Positions 1-59,774 of a stretch of DNA of 64,000 bases are shown in pieces (the first letter of the stretch is position 1; every line of letters begins with the position of its first letter). Under the pieces are notes generated by a model. The model saw only the letters and a list, made by a program, of their open reading frames with translations. It ran no database searches and was not told the DNA's origin. Origin of the DNA: Schmidtea nova (lineage: Eukaryota); NCBI GenBank assembly GCA_044892505.1, contig CM097882.1:203174001-203238000 (forward strand), read 5' to 3'. A program made the translations under genes and the position numbers.

Positions 1-214
1 TTGAAAAAAAAAATTATGACTCATCGATGACTCATCGATGACTCATCAAAAAAAAAGTATGACTCATCGATGACTCATCGATGACTCATCGATGACTCAT
101 CAAAAAAAAAAATTTCTACCCCCCCGGGGGGGAGGGGGGGTCTTTGTTCTTTTTTTTCCCGCCCACGCCATGAGTCATAATGTCTTTGTTCCCGGCTCCA
201 CACATCTACCTACT
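1..214. mobile_element. Right terminal inverted repeat (end) of a Polinton copy of the same family as Polinton A
   Basis: Near-identical to 8760-8938; ends ...CACATCTACCTACT (reverse complement AGTAGGTAG, a Polinton-type AGTAG terminus) at 214, directly followed by MCP coding sequence. Confidence 0.85.
17..101. repeat. Seven ATGACTCAT (AP-1/TRE) motifs in 11-bp tandem units within the TIR
   Basis: ATGACTCAT at 17, 28, 39, 59, 70, 81, 92. Confidence 0.9.
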
Positions 215-1188
215 TTTCGGACAAGACTTTGCATATATGATGCACTAAAATTATCATTTTCAAAATCCTGGGTATATGTTTCACGATAATCGGTATTTTT
301 CGACAATGTTAATGAAGTCACATTAAAATGTTTGAATGTAGATGTAGACTCGGTATAAGATCCGTTATATTGATTTTCGGATTGAAAAGCCACAAGAATG
401 AAATTAGGCATTCGTCTATCTCCAAATATTTGCTCCTTGTAAAATGACGATGCCCCTTTACCGATAGCAAACGATACGATTTCTTTTGATTTTAATGGAT
501 AAATTGCATGTTTTTTATTTAAACCAATTTGATGACCGGCCAATACTGAAGAATCACATCGAACTCTTCTTACCATTAATTTTGCATCAACTATTTGGAT
601 TATTGGTTTCCCAGCTGCCGATTTCAATGATAATGCAGAATCAGATCGCTTCAATCTAATATGTACATTAACTCCGGGAAGTAAGTATTTAGGTTGATCC
701 ATAAAATCCAGTTGTAAAGACGAACACATGTTGAAAAGTTTAGATCCCTTGATCCATTTTTTCCGATAGTCAGCTGAACCATATCCCATTGGAGTAAGAC
801 ACGTTTCTTTCGCATCATTCGTATAATTTAAAATAGTTTCGATTATTGCCTTGTGTGCATATGTATTGTTTCCACCCTCGATTTTTATATTATTAAATCC
901 GAGAATTACATCTTTGAAAAGTGTATGAAACAGGTAATTATTAGGAACTACATCACTCGCATCGGCTAGAGCTTTTTTATCTTTATCTACAACTTTGATT
1001 GTAACGGACAATAATGTATCGTTCAAATCCAAATATTCGGTTTGAGAACCATTAATGTAAAATTCAACATCATTTCTACTATCTGTAATAGAATTCATTG
1101 GAAACACATCTTCAAACGCCCCATATTCAATAACTGCTTGAGGTGATGGTCGATCAAAAAGACATAATTCAGATTTACCGCAAATCAT
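215..1188 (-). pseudogene. Double jelly-roll major capsid protein, 3'-truncated at the junction with the upstream Polinton end
   Basis: Aligns with the MCP of Polinton B up to YMQS(L/M)VR; the last residues of ORF 175-1188 (VGRCVEPGTKTL) are read from TIR sequence. Confidence 0.85.
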
Positions 1189-1568
1189 TCTTCAAATATA
1201 GTTCCATGACCTTTCATTCGTTTGTTTATACGTTTTCGTTTACGTCTTGGTCCTACCGGTACAGATTCCGGTTCCTTATTTTTTGTAAACATACTTGTAA
1301 TTGTAGGAAGCATTTGTGTTACAGCAGGTATAGCTTTATTAACTGCGGCCAAAGCATTGGTTTTCAATGACGGTAATATTTTATTATCTTTCATGATAAC
1401 GTCCTTGGCAGTATTCATTCCGAAATTACCTAGTCGTCTAAGAATTGGAAGTGCAAATCTCCCAATAGTTTTTAACCAACCTGATCCATACTGTTTACCG
1501 ACAAAATACGGTAATTCGCCACCAGTTTGGCTATCACTGTACATTGAAACTATATCGGGATTACTCAT
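1185..1568 (-). CDS. Small Polinton virion protein with QxGG/QxGxG motifs and amphipathic helix (pVI-like, inferred)
   Basis: QTGG-ELPYF, QYGSG-WLKTIGRFALPILRRLG, basic C-terminus MKGHG; homolog at 59771-60169. Confidence 0.7.
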   Translation of the reverse strand: MSNPDIVSMYSDSQTGGELPYFVGKQYGSGWLKTIGRFALPILRRLGNFGMNTAKDVIMKDNKILPSLKTNALAAVNKAIPAVTQMLPTITSMFTKNKEPESVPVGPRRKRKRINKRMKGHGTIFEE

Positions 1569-2603
1569 CGTTTTTTCGAAAATGTAGAGTTAAGTGAGTT
1601 TTAGAATCTTTTGGAAATTTTATAAATCTTCCGCTGTCATCCCGGATATTTATTTCTATATTGTTTATACAGGATGTTGAAACAGATAAATACATTGGAT
1701 TATCCATTACTATTTGAACAATTTCATCTGGCTCGTATTTTTCAATCCATACCGATTTTAGTAAAGGAACCAAGGAATCACCAACAATAATGGGTTCGAT
1801 AATGTTTGTATACACGAATAATTGCTGATGAAGTTTAGATATTTTCGGTTGACGAACACCAGAAATGATATTTTTATCGGTAAATGTATCCTTATCTAAT
1901 CCTAATGTATTGACCAAGTATTTATCAAATCGGACTTTAGTAATTTTTTCTTTGAGTTTGAATTTGAACAATTTATTTAATTCGATAACTGTTAAAATTC
2001 CGAACAATTATCGCTAATATATTTCTGTAATTCATCTAGATGCGTTATATACAACTCCTCCTTGAATGTGAATACATGTCCTTCTTCACGATCATACGAT
2101 ATAGTAAAAGTAATTATTTCTTCATCGCTACTGGCCAAGTTTTGCATAACTTTGAATTCACATTCTTCTTGATTACATGTTATTGTCAGATTTTTACTTC
2201 CCATTCGTTTTGCTACATCAAGATCATTAAATGTAATTGTATACGGAACAACATTACACGTGAGAAATATTCTTCCACCTCGTTGCCACAATTCGATATC
2301 AGGATCAATTGTGTGAGTTGGAACATTCAGATGGCCAGTACTATTATATATCGAGAAAAACGCATTTGCAACAATTGTTTTCTTTTTATAGTAATAAATT
2401 TTACAATAACTATAATATGGAAAAGGTTGGTAAACAAATGTAAAATCCATTAGAGCAACTTCCCAATTTCCGTTTAAATAAATTGGATTAGGTAAATTCA
2501 CCATGAATTTACTTGCGGTATTATCCGGATGGATATTCGGACAACTATTGCTCGGTAAAATAGTGTAAAAATTCACTTTACTAGATTTTTTGACGAGATC
2601 CAT
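1561..2603 (-). pseudogene. Minor capsid (penton) protein with a 1-nt frameshift near 1995
   Basis: ORFs 1992-2603 and 1561-2007 together match the single 348-aa ORF at 60162-61208 (LPSNSCP, WEVAL, YxNIIEP, IEINIRDDSG). Confidence 0.8.
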
Positions 2604-3617
2604 GATGGTTCTTTATATCCATGCCATTTGACATAGTATTGTTTATCCTTACCCACCATTTTAGTCTTCAAAATCTTTTGAATTCTAAATATTGTAGGTT
2701 TAGGAATAACTTGTAATTCTTGTTCGTAGAATTTGCCGCTGATTATATTGTTATCAGAGTCACGAATAGTATACATGACAGGATTCTGCACTGTGTTGAC
2801 TTTCGATATTTGATATACCTCATCACTCCAATTATTATCAAAATTTTTAACGAATGGCGATGTACTAATCTTGCTAATTCGAACATGATCATCAACTTTA
2901 TATTTTGGTTTCTTTACTTTCACTTCACTCACAATATTTTCAGTATCAACTACTTCTGCCGGTTTCCTACCATTTATACCCCGATGAGCACTATGATTAT
3001 AACTGTGAATCAATTGAGGTAAGACATTAATCCAGGTTTTATTGCCTTTAAAAACAAAGTATTTTTTCAATCGATCACGTAAAGTTCGATTAAATCTCTC
3101 GACATGAGCGGCTTTGAATTGTGAGAATACCGAATAATGATTTATTCCCTTTATTACTTCCTTGACTTTACTGTTGTAAAATTCCTTTCCTAAAAAATAA
3201 TAAATATATAAAATTATATTTAACTTTACCCAAATCGGTTTGTAAATTAGTTGGCCGATCCTTTTTCATCATTGTCTTGATAGCAATTGCCATGTCATTA
3301 GCAGATTTAGATTTTACTCCAATTGCTCGAGCAAATCTACTGTAAACATCAATACATGTTAAAATATACTTGTACCCCTTGTTAACTTTGGAATACGGAA
3401 TCATTTCCATCAAGTCCATTTGCCACAAATCATTGATTCTATATGTTTTATATGCTCGAGTTGGAAACCGTTTCAACATCGGTTTGTTTAGACTGTATGA
3501 AAGTTGCCCCGATAACCAACTTTGTGTCTGTTGTTTCGACTTCTGTGCTTTTTTCCTTAGCTTTTCGACTCCACCGAAACCGGCGTCGTCTTTTGGGTTC
3601 GTCCAGATCTTCTCCAT
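2573..3617 (-). CDS. Retroviral-type DDE integrase with C-terminal chromodomain; two exons (3617-3230, 3189-2573), 334 aa
   Basis: WQMDL, LQTD and VERFNRT motifs; removing the 40-nt GT..AG segment 3229-3190 restores LQTDLGKEFYN and an open frame to YYVKWHGY. Confidence 0.88.
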
Positions 3618-3669
3618 TGCAACAAGAAGATTTAAAATTTAAATTTAAATTAGGTAATGATTGACCCAT
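3448..3669 (-). CDS. Conserved overprinted small ORF with MGQ start and CC motif (candidate lipidated protein)
   Basis: Alternative frame over the integrase 5' end; homolog at 62051-62284 keeps MGQ..L.NL.LNFKS.CCNG. Confidence 0.6.
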   Translation of the reverse strand: MGQSLPNLNLNFKSSCCNGEDLDEPKRRRRFRWSRKAKEKSTEVETTDTKLVIGATFIQSKQTDVETVSNSSI

Positions 3670-3672
3670 TGT

Positions 3673-4191
3673 TTATGACTTTCTTTTTCCCAATAAACCA
3701 GCACCTCCCAATAAAGATAATGCTAATGGTAACAATGCTGCGATAAAACCACCTTGTTGTTTATATATTACTTTGCGCATAAGTTTTTTATTTTTTGAGT
3801 TTACTAGCGACAACAATGGTTTTTTATGCTTGTTCAAAACACGCCGATTAGATGGAGTTAGATTCATTTTACCCCGCACGACTTTAACTAAAATAGCGAG
3901 TAAATCATCGATGACGTAACTAGGAAACGATTGAAGAATACCCATTCTTCTAACGGAAGGGGCTTTAAGTAATGCATTAAAAAACGGTAAACTCCGATGA
4001 TGTGCTTGTTTAGCATTAGATTTCAAATTAATTTGATTATTTTTGGGAATATTATCCATAAGTATTTTCTTGGATTTCTTTCTTGATTTCTTTATAGATT
4101 TCTTTGTAAATAGTTTCTTTGTTTTCTTTCCCGCTTTCTTTGTTCTAGCCTTTATCAATGGCTCAAACTTTACTCGAGATTTCATTAACAT
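3673..4191 (-). CDS. Basic core-like protein with C-terminal QQGG-FIAALLPLALSLLGG (adenovirus pX-like tail)
   Basis: Lys-rich N-terminus, GG motif followed by hydrophobic peptide; homolog at 62288-62824. Confidence 0.65.
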   Translation of the reverse strand: MLMKSRVKFEPLIKARTKKAGKKTKKLFTKKSIKKSRKKSKKILMDNIPKNNQINLKSNAKQAHHRSLPFFNALLKAPSVRRMGILQSFPSYVIDDLLAILVKVVRGKMNLTPSNRRVLNKHKKPLLSLVNSKNKKLMRKVIYKQQGGFIAALLPLALSLLGGAGLLGKRKS

Positions 4192-4211
4192 GATTACGAT
4201 TGCAAACAGAA

Positions 4212-4835
4212 TTAACTTTGTTTATAAACCATGGCTCCTTCACTGTTAAAAATATCAGTTCTAACGCGTAAATCATCACTACATTGTTGAGTAAAATCAA
4301 GGAAAATATATCCATGAGGAGATTTTGTAGCATCTTGAAAGGCTTCAATCAAAAAGTTACGATTAGAAGGATAAGCTTGTCTTGCCAGAAAATCAATAAC
4401 TGTCGCATCTCTAGGATTTTTAAACACAACAAGATATTGAACATTTAAATTACGAGTTCGATGACTACCGCCCTGATGAAATAAATTCTGAGTTATAAAA
4501 ATAACAGTAACACCTTTATGTCTACTGATTTTCGTAAATAAGTTATTGAAATCCTTTTCTTTATTTGCTTCTTGATACAAGTCGTCAATGATAATCACAT
4601 CACCTTGTTTTAATCTAGATGACCAGTTTTTATCGAAACCTTTAATGATTGTCATTTTTATTTTACAAAACTGATCTTGTGTCATTCCACTTTCGTTGTC
4701 AGCGCCCCTATGCCAATAAATATTATTAAATTTTGACTTGAATAATTTCGATTGCAATAATTTACAAACAAATAAAGTTTTTCCACTCCCGCTCGGACCA
4801 ACAATTTGAAACACTGCATCATTTCTTAATTCCAT
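4212..4835 (-). CDS. Genome packaging ATPase (A32/FtsK-like)
   Basis: Walker A GPSGSGKT, Walker B IIIDD, ISRH and ITQN motifs. Confidence 0.92.
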   Translation of the reverse strand: MELRNDAVFQIVGPSGSGKTLFVCKLLQSKLFKSKFNNIYWHRGADNESGMTQDQFCKIKMTIIKGFDKNWSSRLKQGDVIIIDDLYQEANKEKDFNNLFTKISRHKGVTVIFITQNLFHQGGSHRTRNLNVQYLVVFKNPRDATVIDFLARQAYPSNRNFLIEAFQDATKSPHGYIFLDFTQQCSDDLRVRTDIFNSEGAMVYKQS

Positions 4836-4928: not shown

Positions 4929-5396
4929 ATGATTAGAAACATTAATTACAAAGGTAAGACAGATGTATCACACATGAAATTTCCAAATGGAAAACCCCAG
5001 CAAATTGTAGATCGAAGTGGGAAATACCCAATAATATACTTTAAATCAGGAAGATATAGAATAATGGGATGCAGGGAATTTATTAGTGACGAACAAGTTG
5101 AGTTTTACGATTTAAAGATACAATCGATAACTGTAACTGCGGATTTAGGATTTATTTGTAATTTGAATGAATTATCGAAATTAATACCATGTGTTTACGA
5201 GCCAGAATTATTTCCAGCTTTGAGATATATCAAATATAATCCCATGTGTGTAAATATATTTGCAAGTGGGAAATTAGTCATATTAGGATTAAAAAACAAA
5301 GACTATAGTACTATAGTTGATGATATTATTTACGATATAAAATCAATTATAGAAGATAAAGCCTTTGTTGATTTCATACTAACATGTGACTCATGA
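4929..5396 (+). CDS. TATA-box binding protein-like protein encoded by the Polinton
   Basis: Two TBP-like half repeats: KFP..IIYFKSGRYRIMG and YEPELFPALRY..VNIFASGKLVILGLK. Confidence 0.8.
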   Translation: MIRNINYKGKTDVSHMKFPNGKPQQIVDRSGKYPIIYFKSGRYRIMGCREFISDEQVEFYDLKIQSITVTADLGFICNLNELSKLIPCVYEPELFPALRYIKYNPMCVNIFASGKLVILGLKNKDYSTIVDDIIYDIKSIIEDKAFVDFILTCDS

Positions 5397-5571: not shown

Positions 5572-6252
5572 ATGTCTCTTACGCAAACACTAATTAAAAG
5601 CCGTAAGGGTTTTAATTATTTATTTATTAAAATTAATATTATTTCTTTTTTAGAAAAACTAATGAACGTAATCTATCGGAAGCTGGATGAACTGTTCCCA
5701 AATCTGATGCCAGCTCTGGTCTACACGGCTCCGGAGATGTTCCCGTACAAGATAATGGTCTTGACGGGAATCGATATAAATCAGATTGTGCTCGATCATA
5801 TGACGAGCCAGAATACAGATCTACCAATGGTACCCGAGCACATTATGTGCGCATATCAATGCGGAAGTTGTGTTGAAAGAATAAGACAATTCAACATCTG
5901 GGTTTTGCGAAACTCGTTGAAATTATTCGATGTCCAGCAAATGGATAAAATCGAGGAGGAAAAGGAGGAACAAGTCAAGGAAACCTGGCCCAACTCTACT
6001 TCGGAGCCGACAGATGATGAAACAACAACAACAACAACAACAGATTTGGAAGCACCAAATCTAGATGGTCCAGTTTCACCTGAACCGATTCAATCATCAT
6101 CATCTGATTGTATGGAGTCGCCACAATCACCGGATTGTATACAATGCCATCGAAAGGCAGATGGTGTTGAGGATGAGGATGAAGAAGAAGAAGAAGAAGA
6201 AGAAGAAGAAGAAGAAGAAGAAGAAAAAGAAAAAGAAGAAGATGAACAATAA
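5572..6252 (+). CDS. Uncharacterised Polinton accessory protein with Cys cluster and poly-Glu tail; probable 51-nt intron 5603-5653
   Basis: 226-codon ORF; CAYQCGSC; (GAA)n run near 6181-6225; AT-rich GTAAG..TTTTAG segment is in frame. Confidence 0.6.
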   Translation: MSLTQTLIKSRKGFNYLFIKINIISFLEKLMNVIYRKLDELFPNLMPALVYTAPEMFPYKIMVLTGIDINQIVLDHMTSQNTDLPMVPEHIMCAYQCGSCVERIRQFNIWVLRNSLKLFDVQQMDKIEEEKEEQVKETWPNSTSEPTDDETTTTTTTDLEAPNLDGPVSPEPIQSSSSDCMESPQSPDCIQCHRKADGVEDEDEEEEEEEEEEEEEEEKEKEEDEQ

Positions 6253-6767
6253 TGATTAATTTGATGTTTTATGTATTTAGTTTTTAGTTATGTTATTTTA
6301 GTTTTGCCATTTTAGATTAATAAAAGTTTATTATTCATTTTAGTTTTTATTTTTTTATTTTAGTTTTAATTTAAATAATAGTAATAGTTTTTAATTAAAA
6401 CATTTTTTTATTAGTAGTTTTTTATTAACTATATAAAATAGTAATTAGTTTTTATTAAATAATTAGTAAGAAAGTGTTTTATGAAAAATAATAATAATTA
6501 TAATAAAAATAATTGTGAAATAAACAAATACATTAGTAGCAGAACATTGCAAACAGAACCCTGGAAGTAGAACTTATTCTGTGATGGTTTTTATATGAAA
6601 AAGCTTCATAATAATTAATTAATTAAACATGCAAACATACAACAAAGATATTGCAATACATGTGCATAGTGTGTGCAAAACAAATGCATGAATATGATTG
6701 GACAAAGACATCCAGTCATCAGTATAAATACAAAGACATTTTATAAAATATTGTCACTATTTACAAC

Positions 6768-7184
6768 ATGCAATCACGAAAACAAAATCTAGATATATGC
6801 GATGAAAAAATATATCAGACTGAGGTAAAACCAGTTCAGATGTACTATGACAGCCGACTTTATTTTTTGGTTAATGAAATACCGTATCGATTATCATATC
6901 CGGTAAAGTTAACAAAATCTTTATATGACAGTCTTGCTGTAATTATTGCCAAGGAAGATATTATCGCATTAAATCGATTATTTTCAAAGATGAATGTTAA
7001 TTTGACATGTAAAGAAACCATGTACATCAATAACAGAAAAACTCGGTTTCATGATGCTTTTCAAACTATTGATTTCATGGATCAAGAACACTGGTTCGTT
7101 ACAGTTATTATTCAAGGGTACAAGATTGATAAAAAAGATGTTGTTACTCCGATTTGGAGAGTTGACAATGCAAGATACGCATAA
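6768..7184 (+). CDS. Uncharacterised conserved Polinton protein (homolog at 14810-15328)
   Basis: Shared KPVQM..FLVNEIP..SY..KL, FHD.FQ...FM..E.WF, P.W....AR.A. Confidence 0.75.
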   Translation: MQSRKQNLDICDEKIYQTEVKPVQMYYDSRLYFLVNEIPYRLSYPVKLTKSLYDSLAVIIAKEDIIALNRLFSKMNVNLTCKETMYINNRKTRFHDAFQTIDFMDQEHWFVTVIIQGYKIDKKDVVTPIWRVDNARYA

Positions 7185-7248: not shown

Positions 7249-7845
7249 ATGAAATTAAATATAATTATTTTATTATTATGTGTTCACAATACTGAAGGAG
7301 AACAAGCTTTGGAAGATTGTCAATCATCACATCCGTTTCGAAAACAAGATAGTACTTGCGCGAGTTATAACGATATATGTCTTTACTCAAACATTGAATG
7401 CAATCAAATAAAATTACAATGTAATCAATGTCCTTCCAAAAATAATGTGATTAATAAAGATATTGAAAAAATGATTAACAAAATAATGATGAAAATAGTT
7501 GAACGATTAAAATGTATCAATCAAACCTTTGTTAAAAAAGAATATGAAGTCAGATACCAAAATCAAACAGTTGAAAACGAAAAAACAGCAATTGTATTAC
7601 ATTATATAAGTTTATTTATATTAATAATTATAATGATGTTATCGGCATCCATACGGCTGGAGAAGATTTCAAATATTCCAAATATTCCAAAGAATAATAT
7701 TCCGACAAATACTAGTATTCCGATGAATAATATTACAATGAATAATAATAATATTCCTATGAATAATATTCCGAGTAATAATTCAGATGTAAATAATTTT
7801 GAAACGAAATTTTGTACACGTACACAACGATATATTTATAAATAA
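7249..7845 (+). CDS. Predicted type I membrane protein: signal peptide, Cys-rich ectodomain, TM, Asn-rich tail
   Basis: MKLNIIILLLCVHNTEG; six Cys within about 40 aa; hydrophobic AIVLHYISLFILIIIMMLSASI; NIP/NN repeats. Confidence 0.6.
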   Translation: MKLNIIILLLCVHNTEGEQALEDCQSSHPFRKQDSTCASYNDICLYSNIECNQIKLQCNQCPSKNNVINKDIEKMINKIMMKIVERLKCINQTFVKKEYEVRYQNQTVENEKTAIVLHYISLFILIIIMMLSASIRLEKISNIPNIPKNNIPTNTSIPMNNITMNNNNIPMNNIPSNNSDVNNFETKFCTRTQRYIYK

Positions 7846-8076
7846 ATTTTGGCTTTTTAATGTCTTTGTTTATGTTGCACATGTGTTGCACGCATGTTGC
7901 ATGTGTCTTTGTTTAGTTTGCATGTGTATTGCAATGTCTTTGTTCATGTTGCACGCGTGTTGCAAAGTCCTTGCACGTGTGTTGCAATGTCCTTGCACGT
8001 GTGTTGCAATGTCTTTGTTAACTTGCACGCATGTTGCAAAGTCTTTGTTTAGTTTGAAAGATAATAATAATTAGTC

Positions 8077-8167
8077 GCAGAACATTGCGATCAGAACCCT
8101 GGAAGCAGAACATTGCGATCAGAACCCTGGAAGCAGAACATTGCGATCAGAACCCTGGAAGCAGAAC
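8077..8167 (+). repeat. 28-bp tandem repeat x3 (GCAGAACATTGCGATCAGAACCCTGGAA)
   Basis: Three head-to-tail copies; one diverged copy near 6539. Confidence 0.9.
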
Positions 8168-8481
8168 CTCTTCTGTGATGGTTTTGAAGTGCAAAAGCGT
8201 CATACTTGACAAATAATAATTAATTAAACATGCACACATACAAAAATGTCTTTGTTTAGTTTGCACACCTGTTGCAAATATTTTTGACGACTCTAATTTT
8301 TAGTTATAAAAAAGTTGTGTTAAATAAAAAATTTTTGTAAAAAAATTTGGTGTTAAAAAATTTGACTTGAAATAAAAAATTTATGTTAAAAAATTTTTGT
8401 TAAAAAATTTATGTTAAAAAATAAAAAAATTTGTCAAAAAAAAAATATTTGTCTAAAAAAAAAATTTTTGAAAAAAAAAAA

Positions 8482-8755
8482 TGGCGCGAAAAAAAAATTT
8501 TGAAAAAAAAAATGGCGCGAAAAAAATTTTTGAAAAAAAAATGGCGCGAAAAAAATTTTTAAAAAAAAAATTTGGCGCGAAAAAAAATTTTGAAAAAAAA
8601 AATTTGGCGCGAAAAAAATTTTTGAAAAAAAAATTTGGCGCGAAAAAAATTTTTGAAAAAAAATTTTTGAAAAAAAAAATTTGGCGCGAAAAAAAATTTT
8701 GAAAAAAAAATTTGGCGCGAAAAAAATTTTTGAAAAAAAAATTTGGCGCGAAAAA
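8482..8755. promoter_or_regulatory. Subterminal tandem array of nine GGCGCGAAA (E2F-consensus) units, about 30 bp period
   Basis: Six copies read TTTGGCGCGAAA, three ATGGCGCGAAA; most units also carry TTTTGAAAA. Confidence 0.6.
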
Positions 8756-8775
8756 AATTTTTGAAAAAAAAAATT

Positions 8776-8838
8776 ATGACTCATCGATGACTCATCAAAA
8801 AAAAAGTATGACTCATCGATGACTCATCGATGACTCAT
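8776..8838. repeat. Five ATGACTCAT (AP-1/TRE) motifs in the TIR of Polinton A
   Basis: At 8776, 8787, 8808, 8819, 8830. Confidence 0.9.
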
Positions 8839-8938
8839 CAAAAAAAAATTTTCTACCCCCCTCCGGGGGTCTTTGTTCTTTTTCCGCCCACGCATGAGTC
8901 ATAATGTCTTTGTTCCCGGCTCCACACATCTACCTACT

Positions 8939-11900
8939 AACGAGAAACGATGAGGTCAAGAAAGAAGTCGAAGCAGAAAGTGTAGCCGTAATACAAAAGA
9001 AGAACACATATGCAAATGTAACCAATATAAGATCTGGGAATCGATAATAGGAATCGTTTCGATTCAAAAATGAAATACAGAGACGGTACAAGGCAAGAAT
9101 CCGAATTTCAACAAACTTGGCATCAGCCAGATCAAGATAAATTTAGAAAACAAGAATATAAACCCCTATTCAACAATGATAGAACATTCAATAACCGACA
9201 ACAAAGAAGCGACAACAATTATTATAACCAAAATAGAGATAACTACAGAAATTCAAGAACAGATGCAAGACACAGGAAGTGTTGGGCATGTAGAGAAGAA
9301 GGACACATACGATCCGAATGTCCGAATGTACAATGCAGTCATTGCTACAAGAGAGGCCATTTCAAGTACCAATGCTATGATGTGTCGACAGAGAACCGTT
9401 TCCTGAAAAATCGACACGTTGCGATAATCGGAGAGGACTACGAACGATCAATAAACGAGGATGACCCAAACGGATATGCTCCATCATAAGGAGAGGTGGT
9501 TGGAGCAATAAATTAAATGTAAGTAATATTTTGAGCAATGTATGTATGAAATTTAATGATTGTGATTGTGTGAATGATATTGATTGTAGATAATTTGAAT
9601 AATAATAATAATAATATTTATAACAATATAAATAAAGTATCACGTCTAAAGGACAATAAACAAACTGATAGAATAGGTACTGAAATTTGTGTTATTAAAG
9701 ACTTCAATAGGTCAAATATTACGTATAATTATATGGGTGGTAGGCCCAGTGTGGAAGTAGAAATTAATAATAATATAATCAGGTGTATGTTAGATACTGG
9801 TGCAAAGATAAGTGTGATTGAATATGAAATAATAAAAAACATTAGAGAAATTAAAATAGACAAAAGTGATATAGAAGTGAAATGTGCAAATGGGAGCTCG
9901 ATTAAGGTTATTGGAAAAGCAATGATAAAAGTAAATCTAGAGAATTCTTCTAAAATAATAGATTTTTACATAACAAATGAAGTAATACAAAAATGATAGG
10001 AGGAATCAACTTTTTAAATAAATTTGAGATATTTTTACGGAAAAATCAAAACAAAGATGAGATTGCTTACATTGAAGAAAATACTAATCAAAATAATGTT
10101 CTAACGTTAGATCATGAAATTCAAAATATTTTGAAAGAATTCGATCCAATATTTATGAAACATAAATGGGATATTGGTTTAACAACGTTAATTAAACATA
10201 ATATTAATACTGAAGGACCACCGGTGGTAATAAATCCACGTCGCCAACCAATACATTTGATAGAGCAAATAGATCAAAATATAAAAGAGGTGGAAAAGTA
10301 TGGAATTATCGAGAAATGTGAATCTGCATGGAACTCTTCTCTTGTATGTGTAAAAGAGAAAGGTAAAGATGATATCCGCATCTATTTAGATTTTCGGGCA
10401 TTAAATTTAGTAACCGAAAGACCGATTTTTCCAATACCAATCACCGAAGAAATGATGGATTTATAAAATGGATCAATTTATTTTACTACTTTAGATTTAG
10501 GCAATGCTTTTTACCAAGTAGAATTAGATGAACTTTCAAAGATAAAAACCGCATTCTCAACAAAGAACGAACAATATTGCTTTAATCGTATGCCCTTTAG
10601 AATCGCAGCAGCACCTGCAACATTTCAGAAATTAATGAACAGGATACTAGGACCCTTAAACTGGATATATTAATGATATATTAATTTTTTCTCCTACAAA
10701 AGAAGAGCACGTTAGGAGAAATAGAAATGTTCTAAATCGAATAAAAGAAGCTGGATTAAAATTGAGTATGAATAAGTGCAACTTCATGAAAGAAGAAATC
10801 AAATTTTTAGGACACATTATTAACAAAAATGGTATAAGAACAGATGATAGCAAATTGGAGGCAATTAAACAATACGAGAGACCGAAATGTTTGAAGAAGT
10901 TAAGGAGCTTCCTTGGTTTAACTAATTATTATAGACGATTCATAGAAAATTATTCGAAATATTCAAAAGACCTAGAAAAACTTTGCGGAAGCAGCCAAAC
11001 GAAATTGATTTGGACAGGCGAATGTGAAATAGCTTTTCAAAACCTTAAAGAAAAATTAATGTTATCCCCGATTTTGGCATTTCCTGATTTTTCGAAAGAA
11101 TTCATTTTAGATACCGATGCCAGTTTTGATAGGATAGGAGCGGTATTATCACAGTTAGATGCTAGTGGAAATGAAAGAGTGATAGCTTATGGCTCTCATG
11201 CGATGAACACCCACGAATTAGGTTACTGTATTACTAGAAAAGAACTACTTGCGATTTACTATTTTACATTGCATTTTAAGCACTATTTATATGGTAAACG
11301 ATTTCGGATTAGAACAGACCACACAGCGATAACTTTTATGATAAAAACTAAAAAGCCAATAACACCACAATTCCAAACATGGATAAATCATTTAAGTAGT
11401 TTAGATATGAAATTGGAATACAGAAAGGGTGACCTACATAATAATGCTGATGCATTGTCAAGGAAAGACTGCGTGACTTTCGTACAATGTCAGACCATCA
11501 CGAAGAACCAAAGAAAGGGAGATTAAAGACAAGATTATTTGCTCTCATGCTAAGAGACAATGGTTCAGCATGACAAAAGGATTCAAAAGATATATTAATT
11601 ATAAAGAAACAAATTAACGACGATGAAAAGTTAGGCTTAAAAGTTGAAGATGAGGTTATAAAAACAATGAAAGACAAAATATGGATACCAAATGACAACG
11701 TAAAATATTTTATAGAATATACGCATCGTACACTTTGTCATGCTGGAGTAAGGAAGGTAAATGACTATATATCACAGAAGTTTGATATGGAAAACAAAAT
11801 GGAAAATATTAAGAATGTTGTTCAAAGTTGTGAACAATGTCAAAAAAGAAAATCTGTTACCACACGCACGAAAGAAACGATAATGAAACATAGAATACCA

Positions 11901-12841
11901 GAATTATTTGAAGTTGTATTTGTAGACATTTGTTGACCATTCAAAAAGACAGTTAATGGAAAGAAATACATTCTTGCAATAATTGATCAATTTAGTCGAT
12001 ATATTTCTTTGAATGCTATAGCAAGACAAGATGAAAATACTACTGCAAAGGTAATTAGAGATAATTGGATTTTAAGATTTGGAGCACCAAAATTGATATA
12101 TTTTGATAAAGGAAAAGCGTTTGAATCTAACGTAATAAAAACACTTATAGGAACACATAAAATGGAGATAACATATAGTAGTCCATATCATCATTCGGCA
12201 AACGGCGTGATTGAAAGACAATTTAGAACTATTAGAGATGCTATTCAAATATCAATAAAAGATAAAATACATAACAGTAATTGGGCCGATATATTACCAG
12301 AAGTAGAGTTCATGTTAAATTCAACAATTCAAAGCACAATTAGATTCAGTCCAGCAGAAGTAGTTTATGGAAAGAAAATTTACAGAGAATGGCCTTCGAT
12401 AGTTTTTGGCGAAATTGAAGTGAGTGATTATATGAAAGAACAAAACGAAAGAAGAGAGATTATAGATTCAGAATTACGCTTAAATGAAGACAAATTGATA
12501 TATAACAACTCGACAAGAATAAACCGTGAGTTCTCGATTGGGGATCGTTTTAGTTAAAAAGGACGTAAGAACGAAAGACGACGATAGGTTTGATGGTCCA
12601 TGAGAAGTAATAGAAAAGAACCATGACAGGAGTTATAAAATAAAAATGCCAAATGATAAAGTCTTGATTAGAAATATCGAATGGCTTAAGCGATACCATA
12701 TAAGCAAATAATTGAAAATAAAAGGAAGGGGGATGTGAGATGAAATTGATAAATTAATTATATATTATAAAAATCAGTATGAGTGTTATAGTATGTATAT
12801 GTTGTGTATGAACGTTGAAATTGCTCAAAGTATTATTTATA

Positions 12842-14421: not shown

Positions 14422-15700
14422 AGTAGACAGATGTGTGCATTGCAGAACAAAGACATATAACGTCATAACATATGTGCGTCCAATGAAAATCAAGTAGACC
14501 CCGGGGTCCCTCTTTTTGTGCCCCCCATCATTTTTTTTGCACACTCCCCCTACATTTTTTACTCACGCACACACGATAAATCAAAAAAATTTATATTTTA
14601 ATTTTAAGATCAGTTTAAGGTCAAGGTAAAAATTTTTAAGGTCAAATTTACAAAAACATAAAAAATATATCAACAACTTTACAAACTTAAATTTTTCAAA
14701 ACCCTAAAAACTTGCAATTTTTCAAAAACCTTTAAAAAATACAAAAAACAAAAAAAAATCAAAAATTCAAAAACTCAAGAATTAATTATCAATATTTATT
14801 AAAATTATATTAAGCGATTCTAGCACTGTTGATTTTCCAAAAGGGAGACTCTACTTCTTTTGGATCTACTTTAAAGCTTTGAATCGATATAACAATAAAC
14901 CAATTTTCATTGTTCATAAACTCAACGGATTGAAATGAGTCATGAAAGTAAGTTTTCTTGTTGTTGATATTTATTGTTTTATTGCATGATAATTTTTTGT
15001 TGATTTTCATCAACACTTTATCGATCGAACAGACATCTTCATAATAAGGCTGATCGATTAAGCTTGAATATTGCGAGGTTGACAGCTTTATTGAATATGA
15101 GCACTTGAATGGGATTTCATTTACCAAGAAAAACATTTGGTAATCGTGAAACATTTGAACCGGTTTGAAATCATTTTTGGCTTGAATTGATATGATTTCG
15201 TTGATAACTGGATTTATTTTAACTGAATCTTTTATTGGACTCGATTTACTGAAAAGACTGCATTTTATGAATAAGAATAGTTTTGTTAGGTTATTTATAC
15301 TAGTCATCGTATGTGTGCTAGCTTGCATGTGTACTGCATGTGAAACCTATGTGTTCTGTCCTGCACATGTGTGTGAGTATGAATAATATTATTATGCATT
15401 TGTATTGCACGTTGAATAATTACAAATTGATTCGTTTTATTATTATTATAAATTTTATTATTGTTGCTTTTTAAAAATATTTCTTAAACAAAAAATACAT
15501 TTAAAAAATATATTTAACAACTAATAAACAAAGACAATATAAAAACAAGTCATGATTCATTTTAACTTGATTGCAACTTGGTTGCACATTGATTGCACAT
15601 TACTTGCATCTTGTTTACACATTGCTTAATTATAAATTGATAAAAAATGACAAACAAATTAATATTAAGCTATCAAAATTATAACCTACAAGTCACTTAT
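14422..15700. mobile_element. Polinton C terminal fragment, inverted relative to A
   Basis: Starts AGTAGACAGATGTGTG..GAACAAAGACAT, matching the reverse complement of the A terminus; carries a homolog of ORF 6768-7184; right boundary approximate. Confidence 0.75.
14810..15328 (-). CDS. Homolog of Polinton A ORF 6768-7184
   Basis: Collinear similarity over about 120 aa. Confidence 0.75.
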   Translation of the reverse strand: MQASTHTMTSINNLTKLFLFIKCSLFSKSSPIKDSVKINPVINEIISIQAKNDFKPVQMFHDYQMFFLVNEIPFKCSYSIKLSTSQYSSLIDQPYYEDVCSIDKVLMKINKKLSCNKTININNKKTYFHDSFQSVEFMNNENWFIVISIQSFKVDPKEVESPFWKINSARIA

Positions 15701-22936: not shown

Positions 22937-24131
22937 GGTAAAGGTAGCGTATGGGAGGGCCAATTTTTAAAATTAAATAATTAATAAAAATTTATTAAAT
23001 AAATTGATATTATAAATTTTATAAACTTTATTATAAATAACCTTATATAAATGGCCTTATTAAAGGTCCACCTTTATGTGAAATTTGCGGAAGGAACATG
23101 AAATTGGTAGCAGAAAACAATGTACTGAATAAATACCTATACGAATGTCGTGATAGAACACGAAATAATTCACACCGGAAGAAAAGGTACGTTACACATG
23201 GGAGTTATTTTGAAACTTCCCGTTTGCCGCTTAGTCAACTAGTTGAATTGGTATATTTTTGGAGCGCAGAAACATCAATCAAACAAGTGAAACTGTACAC
23301 TGGAATATCCAAAACAGCAATAGTACAGTGGTTTCAGTACTTCAGAGATCTATGTAGCTGGAAATTGTTACGAGAGCATTTGGTATTCGGTGGTATTGGA
23401 CGTAGAGTGCAGATCGATGAATCCAAGTTCATGCGTTTGAAGCACCATAGAGGGGAGCCAAGGGGGAACACCGCTGCAGGTTGGGTGTTTGGTATCTTCG
23501 ATGAAGCTACTAAAAATGTACATTTGGAATTTGTGAGAGATAGAAAACAGGAAACTATATTCCCGATTATTAGGAGAGTAGTTTTGCCAGTGACATTGAT
23601 TTGGTCGGATGAATATGCAACGTATACGGGGGGGCCGAATCGAAACACTTCTCATCCTACACCACTCGCACTACTAGGTCCTTACGAACATCAATGGGTC
23701 AATCATTCTTTGCACTTCATCGATCCAGTTACAGGCGCGCATACCAATAGTATTGAAGGCTCTTGGGCCTTATGCAAACGTAAATTCAAGTACATGTTCG
23801 GTTCTCCTAATTCGTTTTTACCAAGCTACGTTGATGAATTTATTTGGAGAAGGCGGTTCGTTCATGATCGAGCAGTATTTAATATCTTTATGGAAACAAT
23901 GCAAGAAAAAAATATGGTAACATAATATGGTCTTGAGATTGTCTATTTTTACTTTACTTTATATGTATCACATTAATTTTGCTTTGATGTGGTTTTTATT
24001 ATGTAAACTCTTGTTTTGTAACTTATTTTTAATATAATATAACTTATTTTTAATATAATATCAATTTATTTAATAAATTTTTATTAATTATTTAATTTTA
24101 AAAATTGGCCCTCCCATACGCTACCTTTAAC
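22937..24131 (+). mobile_element. Merlin (eukaryotic IS1595/ISXO2-like) DNA transposon
   Basis: About 78-bp TIRs GGTAAAGGTAGCGTATGGG..; 8-bp TSD ATTTTTAG at 22929-22936 and 24132-24139. Confidence 0.92.
23098..23925 (+). CDS. Merlin/ISXO2-like DDE transposase
   Basis: VQIDES, IWSDEYATY, VNHS, HTNSIEGSW motifs; in-frame CEICG just upstream of the ATG suggests the true N-terminus is lost or spliced. Confidence 0.9.
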   Translation: MKLVAENNVLNKYLYECRDRTRNNSHRKKRYVTHGSYFETSRLPLSQLVELVYFWSAETSIKQVKLYTGISKTAIVQWFQYFRDLCSWKLLREHLVFGGIGRRVQIDESKFMRLKHHRGEPRGNTAAGWVFGIFDEATKNVHLEFVRDRKQETIFPIIRRVVLPVTLIWSDEYATYTGGPNRNTSHPTPLALLGPYEHQWVNHSLHFIDPVTGAHTNSIEGSWALCKRKFKYMFGSPNSFLPSYVDEFIWRRRFVHDRAVFNIFMETMQEKNMVT

Positions 24132-31680: not shown

Positions 31681-31849
31681 TTTGCATTCGTATATTAAAT
31701 TATTAAATTACAATAATTAAAGATTTTTATTTTGTAAAAAAAAATAAATGTTGTTGTTTAAAACTGTAAAAAAAATTTGTTATTTCAAATATATTATATT
31801 GACTCCATTATTAATTTGGTTTAATTTGATTTTTAAATTATCACAAAAT

Positions 31850-32305
31850 ATGTCCATTGATCATAGTGATTTAGATCGACAAATTGAACAGCTTAAGCAA
31901 TGTAAATTAATTTCAGAAATGGAAGTCAAGCTTTTCAAAAACGGTGGTGATATTCCGAACACAAATTATTTGTTTCTCGTTGATTTTGTTGATCGTGGCT
32001 TTTATTTCGTTGAAAAATTTTTATTGTTGCTTGTCTACAAAGTCAGATATCCAGATAGAATTATATTGATTAGAGGCAATCATGAAAGCCGACAAATTAC
32101 TCAAGTATATGGATTTTATGATGAATGCATGAGAAAATATGGATCAGCTGTAGCTTGGAGATATTGCACAGAAATATTTGATCACCTCAGTTTATCAGCT
32201 GTAATTGATGACCAGATATTTTGCGTTCGCGGTGGCCTTTCTCCATCTATTTCTACATTAAATCAAATCAGAGCATTAGATAGGAAGCAAGAAGTTCTTC
32301 ACTAT
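31850..32305 (+). pseudogene. PPP4C: Protein phosphatase 4 catalytic subunit fragment, intronless, internally deleted
   Basis: [43 protein letters not shown]; the segment carrying GDIHG is missing. Confidence 0.85.
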
Positions 32306-32309
32306 GAAC

Positions 32310-32610
32310 TGGATAATGAATCGATGGTAAATCTAGCAAACATAATGCTTGGAGGTTTCGCGAAGGCGCACTACGCCCGAAACACTTCATTCTGATTTTG
32401 TCGTCAAAGGTTTCAATAAGAGTCTTTGTGGCATCTTCGGCTTGAAGCGGGAAGATGAATTTTGAGTGGCAAAAGATGTTGTAAGCATCTATTTTTTGAT
32501 GGGCTCTTAACTTTGAGTTAAATATTTCTTCTGTTTTTGCAATGACTTCATTAAATAATTCTATCATATCACTTCTTTTTGTTTCTCTAATTTTTACTCC
32601 AATGTAAGTC
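32310..32610 (-). mobile_element. Fragment of an R2/NeSL-type RT C-terminal region
   Basis: QKIDAYNIFCHSKFIFPLQ..FDDKIR resembles the post-RT region of site-specific LINEs. Confidence 0.5.
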
Positions 32611-36422: not shown

Positions 36423-36509
36423 CACACTTGATAAAGGCTGTGCCGAAATATTGTTTTATTGTTTATAAAAATTTTTTTGATCTATAGTCATTATGAGAAT
36501 TATTGATAA

Positions 36510-36570
<61 letters not shown>

Positions 36571-42600: not shown

Positions 42601-42663
42601 AATATTAATTTTAATCTAAAGTATCATAATTATCTTTTTTCACCTTTGATCTTTTTTAATATA

Positions 42664-42826
42664 ATTATCAATAATTATCATAATGACTATAGATCAAATT
42701 TTTTTTTATAAACAATAACACAATATTTCGGCACAATACACACTTGATAAAGGCTGTGCCGAAATATTGTGTTATTGTTTATAAAAAAAAATTTGATCTA
42801 TAGTCATTATGAGAATTATTGATAAT
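42664..42826. repeat. Long palindrome (about 72-bp arms, 19-nt spacer), fold-back MITE-like
   Basis: Arms 42664-42735 and 42755-42826; spacer plus right arm also at about 36421-36515 between (TA)n runs. Confidence 0.8.
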
Positions 42827-43560
42827 AATAATTTAATCTAAAGATTTAGATATTTTTACTAAAGTTTATTCAAAGATTCAAAAAATTAATTTAAGTCATG
42901 TTTTTTAAAATTGTATTCTAATGATATCTATTAATTCAAAATCTAACGAAATTAGTTTTTAATAGCAGTAGATAGTTATGAGGAGCATGACTCATCGAAA
43001 TTACGTCATAATTACGTAATTTTTCGTAACCCCCCCCCCGATTTTTTTTGATCGCGTAATCGATGACGTAATTTTAAATTCAAATTTTAAATTTAAATTT
43101 CCAAAGGTCAAATAAGGTCAAACCTTCAAACAAGGGTATCATTCGAAAGGCCTTGAAGAGGTCTATCCAATGTTCATACCCTCGAAGGTCTATGGAGGGT
43201 CCTTAACCTTCAAGGGGTCAAAAACCTTTAACCTTTTACAATACTTACAAGTTATATGTCAAACAAAAAGTAATTGAGAGGTAAGTATGATGGTCATACT
43301 TTCAAAGGTGTATGGAGGGTCCTGGACCTTGAAAGGGTCAAAAACCTTCAACCTTTTTTAATTCTTATAATATGTACATCAAACAAAAGGTAATTGAAGG
43401 GTGAGTATAATGGTACAGAGATAACTTGTGTGTGTGTGTGTGTTTAAGATAAATTACTGTACTCATTGAACGCGCGTGAAACGCGCGTTCTTCTTCCTTG
43501 TTGTATAAGACAAATCACAGTACGCATTGAACGCGCGTTCTTCTTCCCTTGTTGTTTAAG

Positions 43561-51658: not shown

Positions 51659-51985
51659 TCACAAACCATGAAATTGATCCTGCGTAAACCATTGAACAAT
51701 ATCAAAAGTACTAGATGAACCACATGGAAAATGACTCAAGGGATCCATAAATTGGCCCATTACTTTTAAACATTTCATTCTAACGTGAGAATATGTTGAG
51801 TTTAAATTTCGAACAATTTGCATTATTTGGAAATTGTTGATATCATTACATTTAGAAATTGAATTAATTTCTTTCAAAATTTCATATTTTTCAGGTGATA
51901 AAACATCGGTCATTGTGGTTGGACTTGCAAAATGATTGGTAAAAATGATATATTTTAATTTTTTACATTTGCATTTATTTTGCAT
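51659..51985 (-). pseudogene. Captured host gene 5' fragment in the LTR, tentatively tepsin (ENTH)-like
   Basis: EILKEINSISK..NLNSTYSHVRMKCLKVM resembles tepsin EEIAKISH..RLHSSSGHGKLKVLKIL from memory; duplicate at 58540-58866. Confidence 0.3.
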
Positions 51986-52163
51986 TGAATAACATTGATT
52001 TTTTTATTTTGACTGAGGGTTTGGTATTGTTCGAGGTTTGTTTTAATATTTCTCGTGGAATTTATATTTTGCTGCTAAAGTTTAAAAATTGTAAGAAACT
52101 TGTGAATATAGTTTAAAATAAATATTTTTTAAAAAGTGGACTACTAGTTTTTGATAATTTAAA

Positions 52164-52567
52164 ATGCGTTATTCTATTGTTAAAATTTTAATTGTCCTAC
52201 AAATTTTAACACTTCATATTTTGCAAATGTGTCACAGTAATATTGTTGGATGTGGTGGTTTCGTTAAAACAGATATCATTGGATTTGCTTATCATAAATT
52301 ATCAGCACAATTAATGTTTTCGGACGGAACTCTAAATTATGTGACTGATGTCCCTCCAAATGGAGCGCATTCTATTCCTATATATGATTTCGGTTTCTAT
52401 GTTACCAAAATTATGAGTCCTGACGGTTGGAATATTGAACCAACTGATGGCTACGTTATAAACATTAATAGCCAAGATTCTCGTCCAGATGACTATAATT
52501 TTCATTTCGCTGGTTTTACCGTACTTGGTAAAGTATCAACAGCTAATATTGAAACAGGTCCACTAAA
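52164..52567 (+). other. NOMO: Captured N-terminus of nodal modulator (NOMO) inside the LTR
   Basis: Signal peptide then IVGCGGFVK..GTLNYVTD..PN..IPIYDFG..GWNIEP..NFHFAGFTVLGKV..GP, matching the NOMO N-terminus; duplicate from 59045. Confidence 0.85.
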
Positions 52568-57900: not shown

Positions 57901-58270
57901 ACCAGCTTTAGTTTTGCTCGATGATGAACCTCCACCTGACAATTTCTCGACCCAAACAGATATAATCTCGAACTCTCACACAAACGATAATGACCTTATC
58001 AATTCCACTGAGGACGATCTTTCCAACAACTCACCTTCATACCCGATTGTTCAAACATCAGACGCAGAAAACAAAACGACGGAAAAATCTGAATACATAC
58101 CGTTTATCCCAGAACCGAATGACGTACTTCGTTTACCACCCATTTTGAGGAAAGCAAAGCAAACACAAAATAAGCCAAAGTCCGTCACTTACAACAAATG
58201 GGTTCGTGTCCGTTCTATTAATCAAAAACCGGATTCACCAACTAGACTAATAAGAATCTATTCAAATTAA
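54860..58270 (+). CDS. pol: Gypsy Pol (protease, RT, RNase H, integrase)
   Basis: LVDTGS, YIDDIL, TTDAS, HHPG..C..C, HIDIVGP, SDRGTQFE, VERFHR; no stops. Confidence 0.95.
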   Translation: MHCRLQILQFPTIFSKQHSKKLVMPSLVAAEVDGKLPPALDLFLVRAESPSFSVSPNFCSTLDFLVDTGSSLSILPLQYESLCDDSVYTLKAANGTMVNTHGSFSANFVLPSLNQSFIWKFCVADVIHPILGSDFLSSHNLLVDCRSRLLRTHSHTNSSLVIDTKKLNIFNSSDVSVSTAIQPIHPKIATDILNKYTFSQTMPLRKQVSVTSYCHTINTTNSLPVRCKVRPLSNEKLDFVRSEFATLLNEGIIKRSKSPWSSPLHLVPKKDGTFRPCGDYRRLNMITVHDSYSMPLVNDILYRLTEAKIFSTIDLVKAYHQIPVKESDVEKTAVLTPIGLFEYVFMPFGLRNSAQTFQRHIDHILMDLPFAIPYIDDILIGSKDAETHKKHLDAVLCALSSNNLQINLDKCLFFKEEVRFLGHIISGQGVSPPSDRLDTISKFPLPQTVTQLRSFLGTVNYCHRFIPKISEILSPLSGYCSKPKKSIIPWNDTSLLAFEHAKTALSNIQTLHYPRGDLPLRLTTDASNIAIGAVLHQINGYIPDPLEFYSKKLTSPQQKYSAFDRELLAIYQSVKHFKHLLEGRLFSIHTDHKPLVYLFSMKDPSPRQQRQISYISEFSCQIYHIAGSDNIIADCLSRNVNAIIHCPLFSIDELQNNPPDAIDISKFGDKHIIKDKIHYDSSLPGTLRPILNDSMRKLAFLSVHNTHHPGSSATFNLLHTCVVWPNMRHDVKLWVAQCIGCQRFKITKHTKPPIIHYPTGNRFENLHIDIVGPVPSDCGFSYLLTMIDRKTRWFEVIPLRTISSNTIATSLIQNWISRYGVPKSIISDRGTQFESNLFQALTAKLGIQHLRTTTYHPQTNGLVERFHRTLKASLGILSEQQGWTKVLPFVLLGWRNTPSRTTGSSPAQLLFGTNTSLPGQLVDFDNSPTLEDLAIARDHFLSIDTNPEFSSSTTYKPYIPKTFENASHVYIRNITDASLKPRYSGPYKLVEIKENNAKVIVNDATQTFNLCRLKPALVLLDDEPPPDNFSTQTDIISNSHTNDNDLINSTEDDLSNNSPSYPIVQTSDAENKTTEKSEYIPFIPEPNDVLRLPPILRKAKQTQNKPKSVTYNKWVRVRSINQKPDSPTRLIRIYSN
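54917..54962 (+). promoter_or_regulatory. -1 programmed ribosomal frameshift signal
   Basis: A AAA AAC heptamer 54917-54923, 6-nt spacer, stem TGCCATCA/TGATGGCA; pol is in the -1 frame. Confidence 0.8.
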
Positions 58271-58492
58271 TTGCACCACTGTCCACCAAGTTCTATTAGT
58301 TTTTTTTTTTTTTTTTCGGTTTCCTAAATTTCTTTCGCAATTCTTTCTCAGGTTATTCCATGTCATTCACGACTCTTTCCAAATACTTTCTGGACACTAC
58401 AAAATACCATATTATTATATAATAAACTACTATATTACGTATCTACATTATAGTATTTCAAAATGTACTCCGCATCTTCCGATGGGGGCTGA

Positions 58493-59448: not shown

Positions 59449-59774
59449 GTATTGTTTCCACCTTCAATTTTGATATTATTAAAACCAAGAATCGCGTCCT
59501 TGAATAGAGTATGAAACATAAAATTGTTTGGTATAACATCATCAGTTGCAGACAAATCTTTTTTATCGGCATTTACAACTTTTATTTGAACTGTTAGTAA
59601 AGTATCATTCAAATCCAAATATTCAGATTGAGATCCGTTAATGTAAAATGCCACATCATTTCTACTGTCTGTAATAGAATTCATGGGAAATACTTCTTCA
59701 AATGCACCATATTCAATGACTGCTTGAGGAGATGGTCGGTCGAAAAGACATAATTCAGATTTACCACAAATCAT
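59449..59774 (-). pseudogene. Major capsid protein of Polinton B, N-terminal part
   Basis: MICGKSELCLFDRPSPQ as in A; runs into the 3' LTR after GGNNT. Confidence 0.9.

Follow-up and report, generated by a model that had tools for sequence, protein, structure and literature searches.

A Polinton end and its genes

The window analysed in this work, a 64-kb stretch of Schmidtea nova DNA with a G+C content of about 30%, starts with a Polinton (element A) whose genes are followed by a terminal region holding an array of E2F-type sites, and by the remains of a retroelement at the site of insertion. The main features of this element are as follows:

1..214, minus strand: second copy of the A terminus in direct orientation, 81% identical to 8761-8938 with gaps included
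175..4835, minus strand: core gene block of Polinton A, with Pfam rve, Chromo and Pox_A32 domains and synteny with element B and with the related loci L012 and L026
4929..7845, plus strand: accessory genes toward the terminus, namely a TBP-like gene (4929-5396; PF00352), a Cys-rich acidic ORF (5572-6252), a conserved ORF (6768-7184) and a putative membrane protein (7249-7845)
8923..8938, minus strand: terminus of Polinton A, AGTAGGTAGATGTGTG when read 5' inward; the same end is found at 214, and related ends at 14422 and 42967
8939..12557, plus strand: gag/pol remains of a Gypsy-type retroelement forming the flank of the insertion site, with zf-CCHC, aspartyl protease and RT_RNaseH domains

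The core block comprises a putative gene for the major capsid protein, which is cut at 214, together with PZ-like and minor-capsid-like genes, an integrase encoded in more than one ORF with a chromodomain (2573-2776) and an rve domain (PF00665, 3168-3617), a basic protein and an A32-type packaging ATPase (PF04665, E 1.3e-6), for which we count 464 homologs at E <= 1e-20. The capsid labels, which in a Polinton would stand for double jelly-roll proteins, are putative and come from position and conservation, these ORFs giving 0 Pfam or PDB sequence matches. The pPolB gene is not seen in element A, cut as it is at 214, and is present in the sister element B (PF03175), which runs from 42967 onward with the gene order of A plus pPolB, as well as in the syntenic L012 and L026. 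At 1-214, the terminus copy abuts the interior of the capsid gene of A itself, through either a nested insertion or a rearrangement. The window edge truncates this copy at its last TTTGAA monomer, so that an E2F array there, if any, would lie outside. The four Polinton ends start with AGTAG(G/A), which is near, although not identical, to the vertebrate end motifs (AGT)2 or (AG)3; the window includes one end per Polinton only.

Contigs from four of six read runs, with positions 8436-8777 left out as repeat, end at 8938-8939, and depth falls beyond the terminus. In the contigs from all four runs the element is much deeper than its flank, which fits a repeated family, depth not being a copy number. 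One X1 contig (depth 66) joins 8350 to 8903 and apparently bypasses both the E2F array and the AP-1 array next to it.

Two accessory genes of element A have a wider distribution. The TBP-like gene (PF00352) is found near the packaging ATPase in this Polinton clade (4929-5396, 63560-64000 and 11 metagenomic loci, with 41-64% identity), and the ORF at 6768-7184, also seen at 14810-15328 and in eight loci, encodes a conserved accessory protein with a W..P.W motif at its C-terminus and no Pfam, PHROG or ESM Atlas assignment. Moreover, repeated GTCTTTGTT / TTGCA blocks and 28-bp GCAGAAC repeats occupy 7860-8260 and 6516-6760; part of this material is present twice, in the ORF 6768 promoter and in the subterminal region. 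Modules of a similar kind, TTGCATGCA plus AAAGACATGACGTCA, occur in L007, L019 and L058.

Structure of the E2F array

Between the accessory genes and the terminus, the following repeats can be distinguished:

8308..8454, no strand assigned: inner continuation of the A-run/T-run scaffold, with inserts GT, GTT, GTC and GGTGTT and without E2F site
8455..8775, no strand assigned: 31-bp minisatellite in which six of nine cores form the double site TTTGGCGCGAAA / TTTCGCGCCAAA
8483, 8514, 8543, 8574, 8606, 8637, 8683, 8714 and 8745: GGCGCG cores
8467, 8499, 8529, 8589, 8621, 8652, 8666, 8698, 8729 and 8760 (span 8467..8765), plus strand: ten TTTGAA hexamers
8776..8839, no strand assigned: array of five ATGACTCATCG with the AP-1 consensus on the same A-tract scaffold, with a sixth site at 8895

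The word GGCGCG is counted 13 times across the 64-kb window, nine of them within the array (8483-8750). As the earlier note had proposed from the letters, the array occupies a Polinton subterminal position, 186-456 nt inside the terminus at 8938, and lies on the inner side of a second array (8776-8839) whose TGACTCA words we take to be AP-1 sites. Its nine cores all read TTTCGCGCC on the minus strand, and six of them also read TTTGGCGC on the plus strand, which makes the double site TTTCGCGCCAAA in the same six; word positions thus bear out the nine cores and the nine and six readings reported before. With both strands counted, the consensus TTTSSCGC with A/T flanks is matched 15 times in the array. 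The description of GGCGCG as the only G/C in 8482-8755 has to be corrected, eight more G's being present there, all of them in TTTGAA.

Core-to-core spacings are 31, 29, 31, 32, 31, 46, 31 and 31 nt, so that six of the eight equal 31-32 nt, or about three helical turns, and a tandem repeat of period 31 covers the whole nine-core region. The minisatellite consists of two monomer types in turn, A(7-11)-T(1-3)-GGCGCG and A(7-9)-T(4-5)-G, both being forms of a generic monomer made of an A-run, a T-run and a short insert, which is G or GGCGCG in the E2F array and differs outside it (ATGACTCATC further out, GT/GTT/GTC further in). Of the array bases, 69% are in A or T runs of at least 5, against a window median of 5%. 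Beyond run length, the units differ in one lost G and one added monomer and in nothing else, and the nine E2F-type copies are a single expansion event. The nine tandem sites announced earlier are therefore present, although as units of one repeat of period 31, for which chance has to be judged per 31-bp unit and not per site; moreover, as the nine copies are one event and the units young, the invariance of the core is uninformative on selection.

The last accessory stop precedes the first core by 638 nt, and, translations of the repeat aside, the ORF list has no entry that begins close to the array. Since the adjoining genes point to the terminus and no gene starts nearby, the array is not a proximal promoter. 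Several other readings of the region were discarded. The ORFs across the array (8434-8784 on the minus strand, 8481-8702 on the plus strand) are mere translations of the repeat, and the folding z of -4.8 reflects self-complementary A/T runs. The GGTGTT at 8349 is not taken as a core decayed at its CpG, given a window CpG observed/expected ratio of 0.95 and nearby monomers that vary around TTTGTT, and a sigma-70 scan has no relevance for eukaryotic DNA.

How unusual the E2F word is

A TTTSSCGC match is expected about 0.001-0.003 times per random 31-bp unit. The double site TTTSGCGCSAAA is observed 6 times for 0.05 expected, a number reached in 0 of 100 shuffles, and a simulated background of 3 Mb contained 0 double sites. 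Among the 64 possible six-base cores of pure G/C between TTT and AAA, four give the consensus on both strands and 12 on at least one. These chance figures somewhat overstate the surprise, because the motif was noticed after the fact. The presence of an E2F-site minisatellite in a Polinton terminal region is real and statistically unusual.

In the DHFR promoter, the double E2F site is single and located at the start site, whereas the array repeats it, with every ORF start far away. The likeness in letters is complete, the DHFR double site TTTCGCGCCAAA (Transfac R01928, as given in PMC2784457) being identical at 12 of 12 bases in six of the nine units. Structures of E2F proteins indicate that 3-5 flanking A/T bases are read through a narrow minor groove, and the SELEX preference reported in the same source places TTGGCGGGAA above the GCGCGC-type canonical core (PMC4686757). 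The GGCGCG core of the array is one base off the top-affinity SELEX core GGCGGG, and its word would therefore count as a canonical E2F site, though not the strongest. At the sequence level, the E2F identity first suggested for these sites holds, with an exact DHFR site and A/T flanks of the kind that E2F proteins read.

The TTTGAA hexamers

The earlier note had also seen in TTTGAA a CHR element bound by MuvB/DREAM and interleaved with the E2F sites. Tandem CDE/CHR and E2F/CLE elements likewise combine an E2F-type word and TTTGAA in one unit (PMC5716687, PMC4176359), and require a 4-nt spacer between both parts according to PMC5716687. In the array, TTTGAA follows 9-10 nt past the core in eight of nine units, the third unit having TTTAAA, so that none of the 15 E2F sites has a CHR or CLE at the 4-nt spacing, and only A/T runs fill the six bases where a CLE would stand. 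Moreover, every TTTGAA is the junction between a T-run, a G and an A-run of the repeat, which means that the scaffold makes the hexamer by itself. Its expectation is already about 0.08 per 31-bp unit (about 0.29 for any of the four CHR variants), and the window holds 174 copies outside the array, with a density of 2.7 per kb. The CHR alone can act, close to a transcription start, and TTTAAA is likewise bound by DREAM, as stated in PMC4176359; the TTTAAA of the unit lacking the G carries little weight, since any loss of that G yields this word. Altogether, the CHR/MuvB reading finds no support above chance, with the wrong spacing at 15 of 15 sites, and the CHR resemblance is probably incidental.

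The rest of the terminus and the other Polinton ends

Outward from the AP-1 array, the terminus of element A carries further short words:

8845..8863, plus strand: 19-nt word AAAATTTTCTACCCCCCTC, which recurs in the related Polintons L018 and L058, and in a shorter form in L019
8869-8877 and 8906-8914, minus strand: two copies of AACAAAGAC, together with a GGGCGG box at 8884-8889; AACAAAGACAT is common to the terminus of Polinton C

The 19-nt word is the sole word of at least 14 nt with at least four G/C that the A terminus has in common with the related loci. Shuffled sequences reached 19 nt in 3 cases out of 1000, and control stretches of the host reached at most 16 nt in 23 of 24 cases, the remaining one being a TTC microsatellite. 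In L018, L058 and L019 (shortened in the last), AAAATTTTCTACCCCCCTC directly precedes the word ATTGG (ATTAG in L019), a TATAAAA and the start codon of an accessory gene; L018 and L058 are near-identical to each other, and a CRE palindrome accompanies the word in L058 and L019. Since the word occupies a promoter position in these relatives, the A terminus uses the promoter vocabulary of its clade, which favours a regulatory role of the whole region and not of the E2F cores specifically. The single sub-threshold Rfam match of the analysis falls on the AP-1 array.

The visible end of element B is its pPolB end, and that of C is the same end as that of A. E2F sites are absent from terminus B over its first 650 nt and from terminus C over its first 400 nt. 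Terminus B has one AP-1 and three CRE-like sites, and AAGGTCA occurs in both B and C. In the B end, the stretch 42967-43080 is dense in the bZIP-type words ATGACTCAT, TTACGTCA, TTACGTAA and TGACGTAA, which are followed by AAGGTCA repeats and then by a 120-bp duplication. The end of the truncated third Polinton, C, lies at 14422-14800 within a decayed retroelement and reads AGTAG..AGATGTGTG, with AACAAAGACAT in common with A.

Related Polintons, viral sequences and literature

Searches in metagenome contigs confirmed 57 of 200 candidate stretches as related Polintons, which add up to 193 kb. E2F words are not enriched in these 57 loci (11 observed for 16 expected), which are loci without visible termini. 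An AGTAG-type end was seen in none of the 28 related loci of at least 2.5 kb that were listed, with one internal match in L034. The non-coding parts of related Polintons often hold tandem repeats. As a side observation, an accessory ORF of related Polintons (L007:190-700, L019:675-1240) has by eye the look of a dual-specificity phosphatase, an assignment we assume from its HCxxGxSRS motif.

In viral contigs, the tandem double site gave 0 matches, as did the combination AP-1 + AP-1 + E2F, and a looser tandem gave six loci, phage-like or baculovirus-like by their ORFs. The terminal 16-mer was matched 29 times, and the 500 nt around these matches held neither AACAAAGAC nor an E2F site; searches with the ATPase recovered 0 and 1 distant loci. 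A phage carrying PhoH (L003:3001-3150, L005:3001-3152) has a 27-bp tandem array in which TTGGCGCGAAAA occurs five to six times, in what looks like intergenic sequence, from which it follows that such arrays also arise without E2F.

Among the literature matches listed, which cover few subscription journals, no report of E2F arrays at Polinton ends was found. The C. elegans element CELE2 was considered as a precedent for E2F repeats and dropped, with 0 occurrences of E2F or EFL in PMC9757741. E2F sites are already known both from transposons and from the end of a viral genome, so that what is new in this case is its setting and the modular array and not the principle.

Possible roles of the array

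We propose that the array is part of a terminal control module bound by host E2F/DP, similar to the left end of adenovirus, repressive in resting and permissive in cycling cells, an explanation that to our judgement has about an even chance of being correct. Slippage of a monomer of A-tract and T-tract with host factor sites would have built the terminal control region of one Polinton subfamily. Host E2F/DP dimers would bind the repeated TTTCGCGCC(AAA) sites, and the A/T tracts would keep the DNA nucleosome-poor and supply the narrow minor groove read by E2F. In resting cells, Rb/DREAM on E2F would silence the end of the element, and in cycling cells this repression would lift and, together with the AP-1 sites, let the element be transcribed or replicated. 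As the nearest genes end upstream of the array, any action would be at a distance or on the terminus itself, and not that of a proximal promoter. That E2F binds, which way it acts and on what target are all points that we infer. The exact DHFR match, the low chance per unit, the A/T flanks and the 19-nt promoter word argue for the module, as do TGACTCA on the same scaffold next door and the CRE-like and AAGGTCA words at B and C; against it count the array being subfamily-specific as far as visible, its single expansion and the phage array. The desilencing of Polintons on differentiation in Schmidtea (PMC8532177) also counts against it.

The direction of the proposed effect comes by analogy from adenovirus genomes, whose conserved E2F site (nt 270-290) serves to recruit Rb/p107, to repress E1A and to favour persistence (Zheng et al. 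2016, PMC4726734); the array would in the same way be quiet in resting cells and released in cycling ones. The earlier note stressed the release alone and read the array, with the AP-1 sites, as an enhancer for proliferation plus stress that senses stem or germ cells. This may hold, but there is no gene start beside the array, the two other Polinton ends of the window lack it, and the adenovirus site, the closest viral parallel, represses. The E1A enhancer and packaging domain, as described in that paper, resembles the Polinton end in that an E2F consensus lies some hundreds of nt inside, amid A/T-rich repeats and beside activator sites, and in that the genome is linear dsDNA with protein priming and belongs to the same broad lineage. 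In adenovirus, however, two single sites precede an inward-reading gene (PMC4726734), whereas the Polinton has nine phased minisatellite sites downstream of outward-reading genes, in an integrated element. A second precedent is found in the Brassicaceae MITEs, which amplify E2F sites that are bound by E2F in vivo (PMC7329337, PMC5950925). In both cases a transposable element multiplies one E2F consensus word with an unsettled function, although MITEs are small non-autonomous plant elements and Polinton A is a gene-bearing, virus-like element of animals. The amplification by MITEs is reported by Henaff et al. (2014). Minisatellites are the setting of these plant sites. In Arabidopsis, E2F/RBR1 sits on transposon-borne sites apparently without gene regulation, according to a review (PMC7329337) whose source on RBR1 is marked as retracted.

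The array may instead be a neutral passenger, a slippage-prone A/T minisatellite of one subfamily whose E2F-like core arose by luck or is bound without effect. Unit differences that are almost all of run length, termini B and C without array and the X1 contig that bypasses both arrays between 8350 and 8903 are what a passenger would leave behind; the frequent tandem repeats in the non-coding DNA of related Polintons, the phage with a similar word in tandem and the post hoc choice of the motif among many possible factors point in the same direction. A passenger accounts poorly, however, for the very low per-unit chance of a double E2F site, for an adjoining array that is also a perfect factor site and for the promoter vocabulary that the terminus has in common with its relatives, and we regard it as improbable, albeit a contender to be taken seriously. 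Another kind of reading keeps E2F/DP on the array and changes its job, E2F/Rb aiding S-phase replication, repair, or excision and integration of the end. At the origins of adenovirus, the host factors NFI and Oct-1 help replication, and the auxiliary origin sites lie within about 50 nt of the end. At 186-456 nt from the protein-priming end, and 3' to every gene nearby, the Polinton array is suited to a task of this kind, but it is also several times further in than those auxiliary sites, in a terminus that shares a word with gene promoters. A non-transcriptional task of this sort, proposed earlier for the E2F sites of plant DNA transposons (PMC7329337), seems unlikely to us here.

The array may also be read by a protein of the element itself, either as a packaging sequence for the A32-type ATPase, comparable to the A repeats of adenovirus, or as a site for the TBP-like protein. 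Both proteins are encoded in the element, and phased repeats rich in A/T, some hundreds of nt inside the end, are what such a signal would look like. The A-repeat consensus for adenovirus packaging is TTTG-N8-CG, and none of its 35 matches in the window falls within 8300-8940. In addition, the ATPase of element B is 90% identical and yet the visible B end has no such array, and a KilA-N-type DNA-binding domain is absent among the 32 ORFs scanned. Even with the packaging repeats of adenovirus overlapping the E1A enhancer (PMC4726734), we consider this reading very unlikely. About as little, or slightly less, can be expected of a scheme in which the A/T tracts are the functional part, as a nucleosome-poor, inward promoter of a constitutive or stem-cell type, with GGCGCG as a site for another CpG reader or a spacer. 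The 69% of bases in homopolymer runs, T-rich when read inward, recall the T-tract promoters that mark stem-cell and constitutive genes in a planarian genome of 70% A+T (PMC10558129). Terminus C is also rich in such runs (26%), but terminus B is not (7%), there is no minus-strand ORF of at least 60 aa between the ATPase and the array, and the exact E2F match would be left unexplained.

A candidate partner gene and wider meaning

Among the genes of element A, the ORF at 5572-6252 encodes a Cys-rich protein with an acidic tail and a probable short intron near its start. Its word LDELF corresponds to MEDLF in the single homolog P0139, with which it also shares the cysteines, and LxCxE is absent. 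The 'Oncoid' genes of adintoviruses have a CR1 pattern (PMC8502044), which ORF 5572 matches in part only, its LxxLF-like word lacking the D/E/N of the published pattern; as a CR1-type partner of the Rb pocket, this ORF would be a lead only. The LxCxE found in ORF 6768 was rejected as an Rb motif, since it is present in 1 of 10 homologs and not conserved.

Little is understood about what activates Polintons, or in which cells. A function of the E2F array is plausible, the CHR part being unsupported, and the array may tie the activity of the element to dividing cells. If E2F/Rb reads this end, it would be a first concrete cis-element to test, and would link the control of Polintons to the logic of the adenovirus left end; a high-copy element of this kind would also spread clusters of E2F and AP-1 sites through the host genome. 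A broader scenario, which as a whole we hold to be doubtful, is that Polintons of the TBP clade swap host-factor cassettes (E2F, AP-1, CRE, nuclear-receptor half-sites) on an A-tract scaffold at their ends, giving subfamilies tuned to different cell states. Subfamily A would then be gated by E2F/Rb and might encode a CR1-like Rb antagonist (ORF 5572), the whole amounting to a latency switch of an endogenous DNA virus.

Other mobile DNA in the window

A Gypsy element with near-intact gag and pol (51659-59473) sits inside the capsid gene of Polinton B, and both of its terminal repeats hold a captured 5' piece of the host gene NOMO1 (PF22898). Just outside the B terminus, 42660-42830 forms a near-perfect inverted repeat of 76 nt with a 19-nt spacer. 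It has a related copy at 36439-36513 and is probably a non-autonomous element of small size. The window also contains an ISXO2/Merlin-type transposase ORF within inverted repeats of 97 nt and an intronless, deleted copy of a PP2A/PP4-like phosphatase (23098-23925, 31748-32395).
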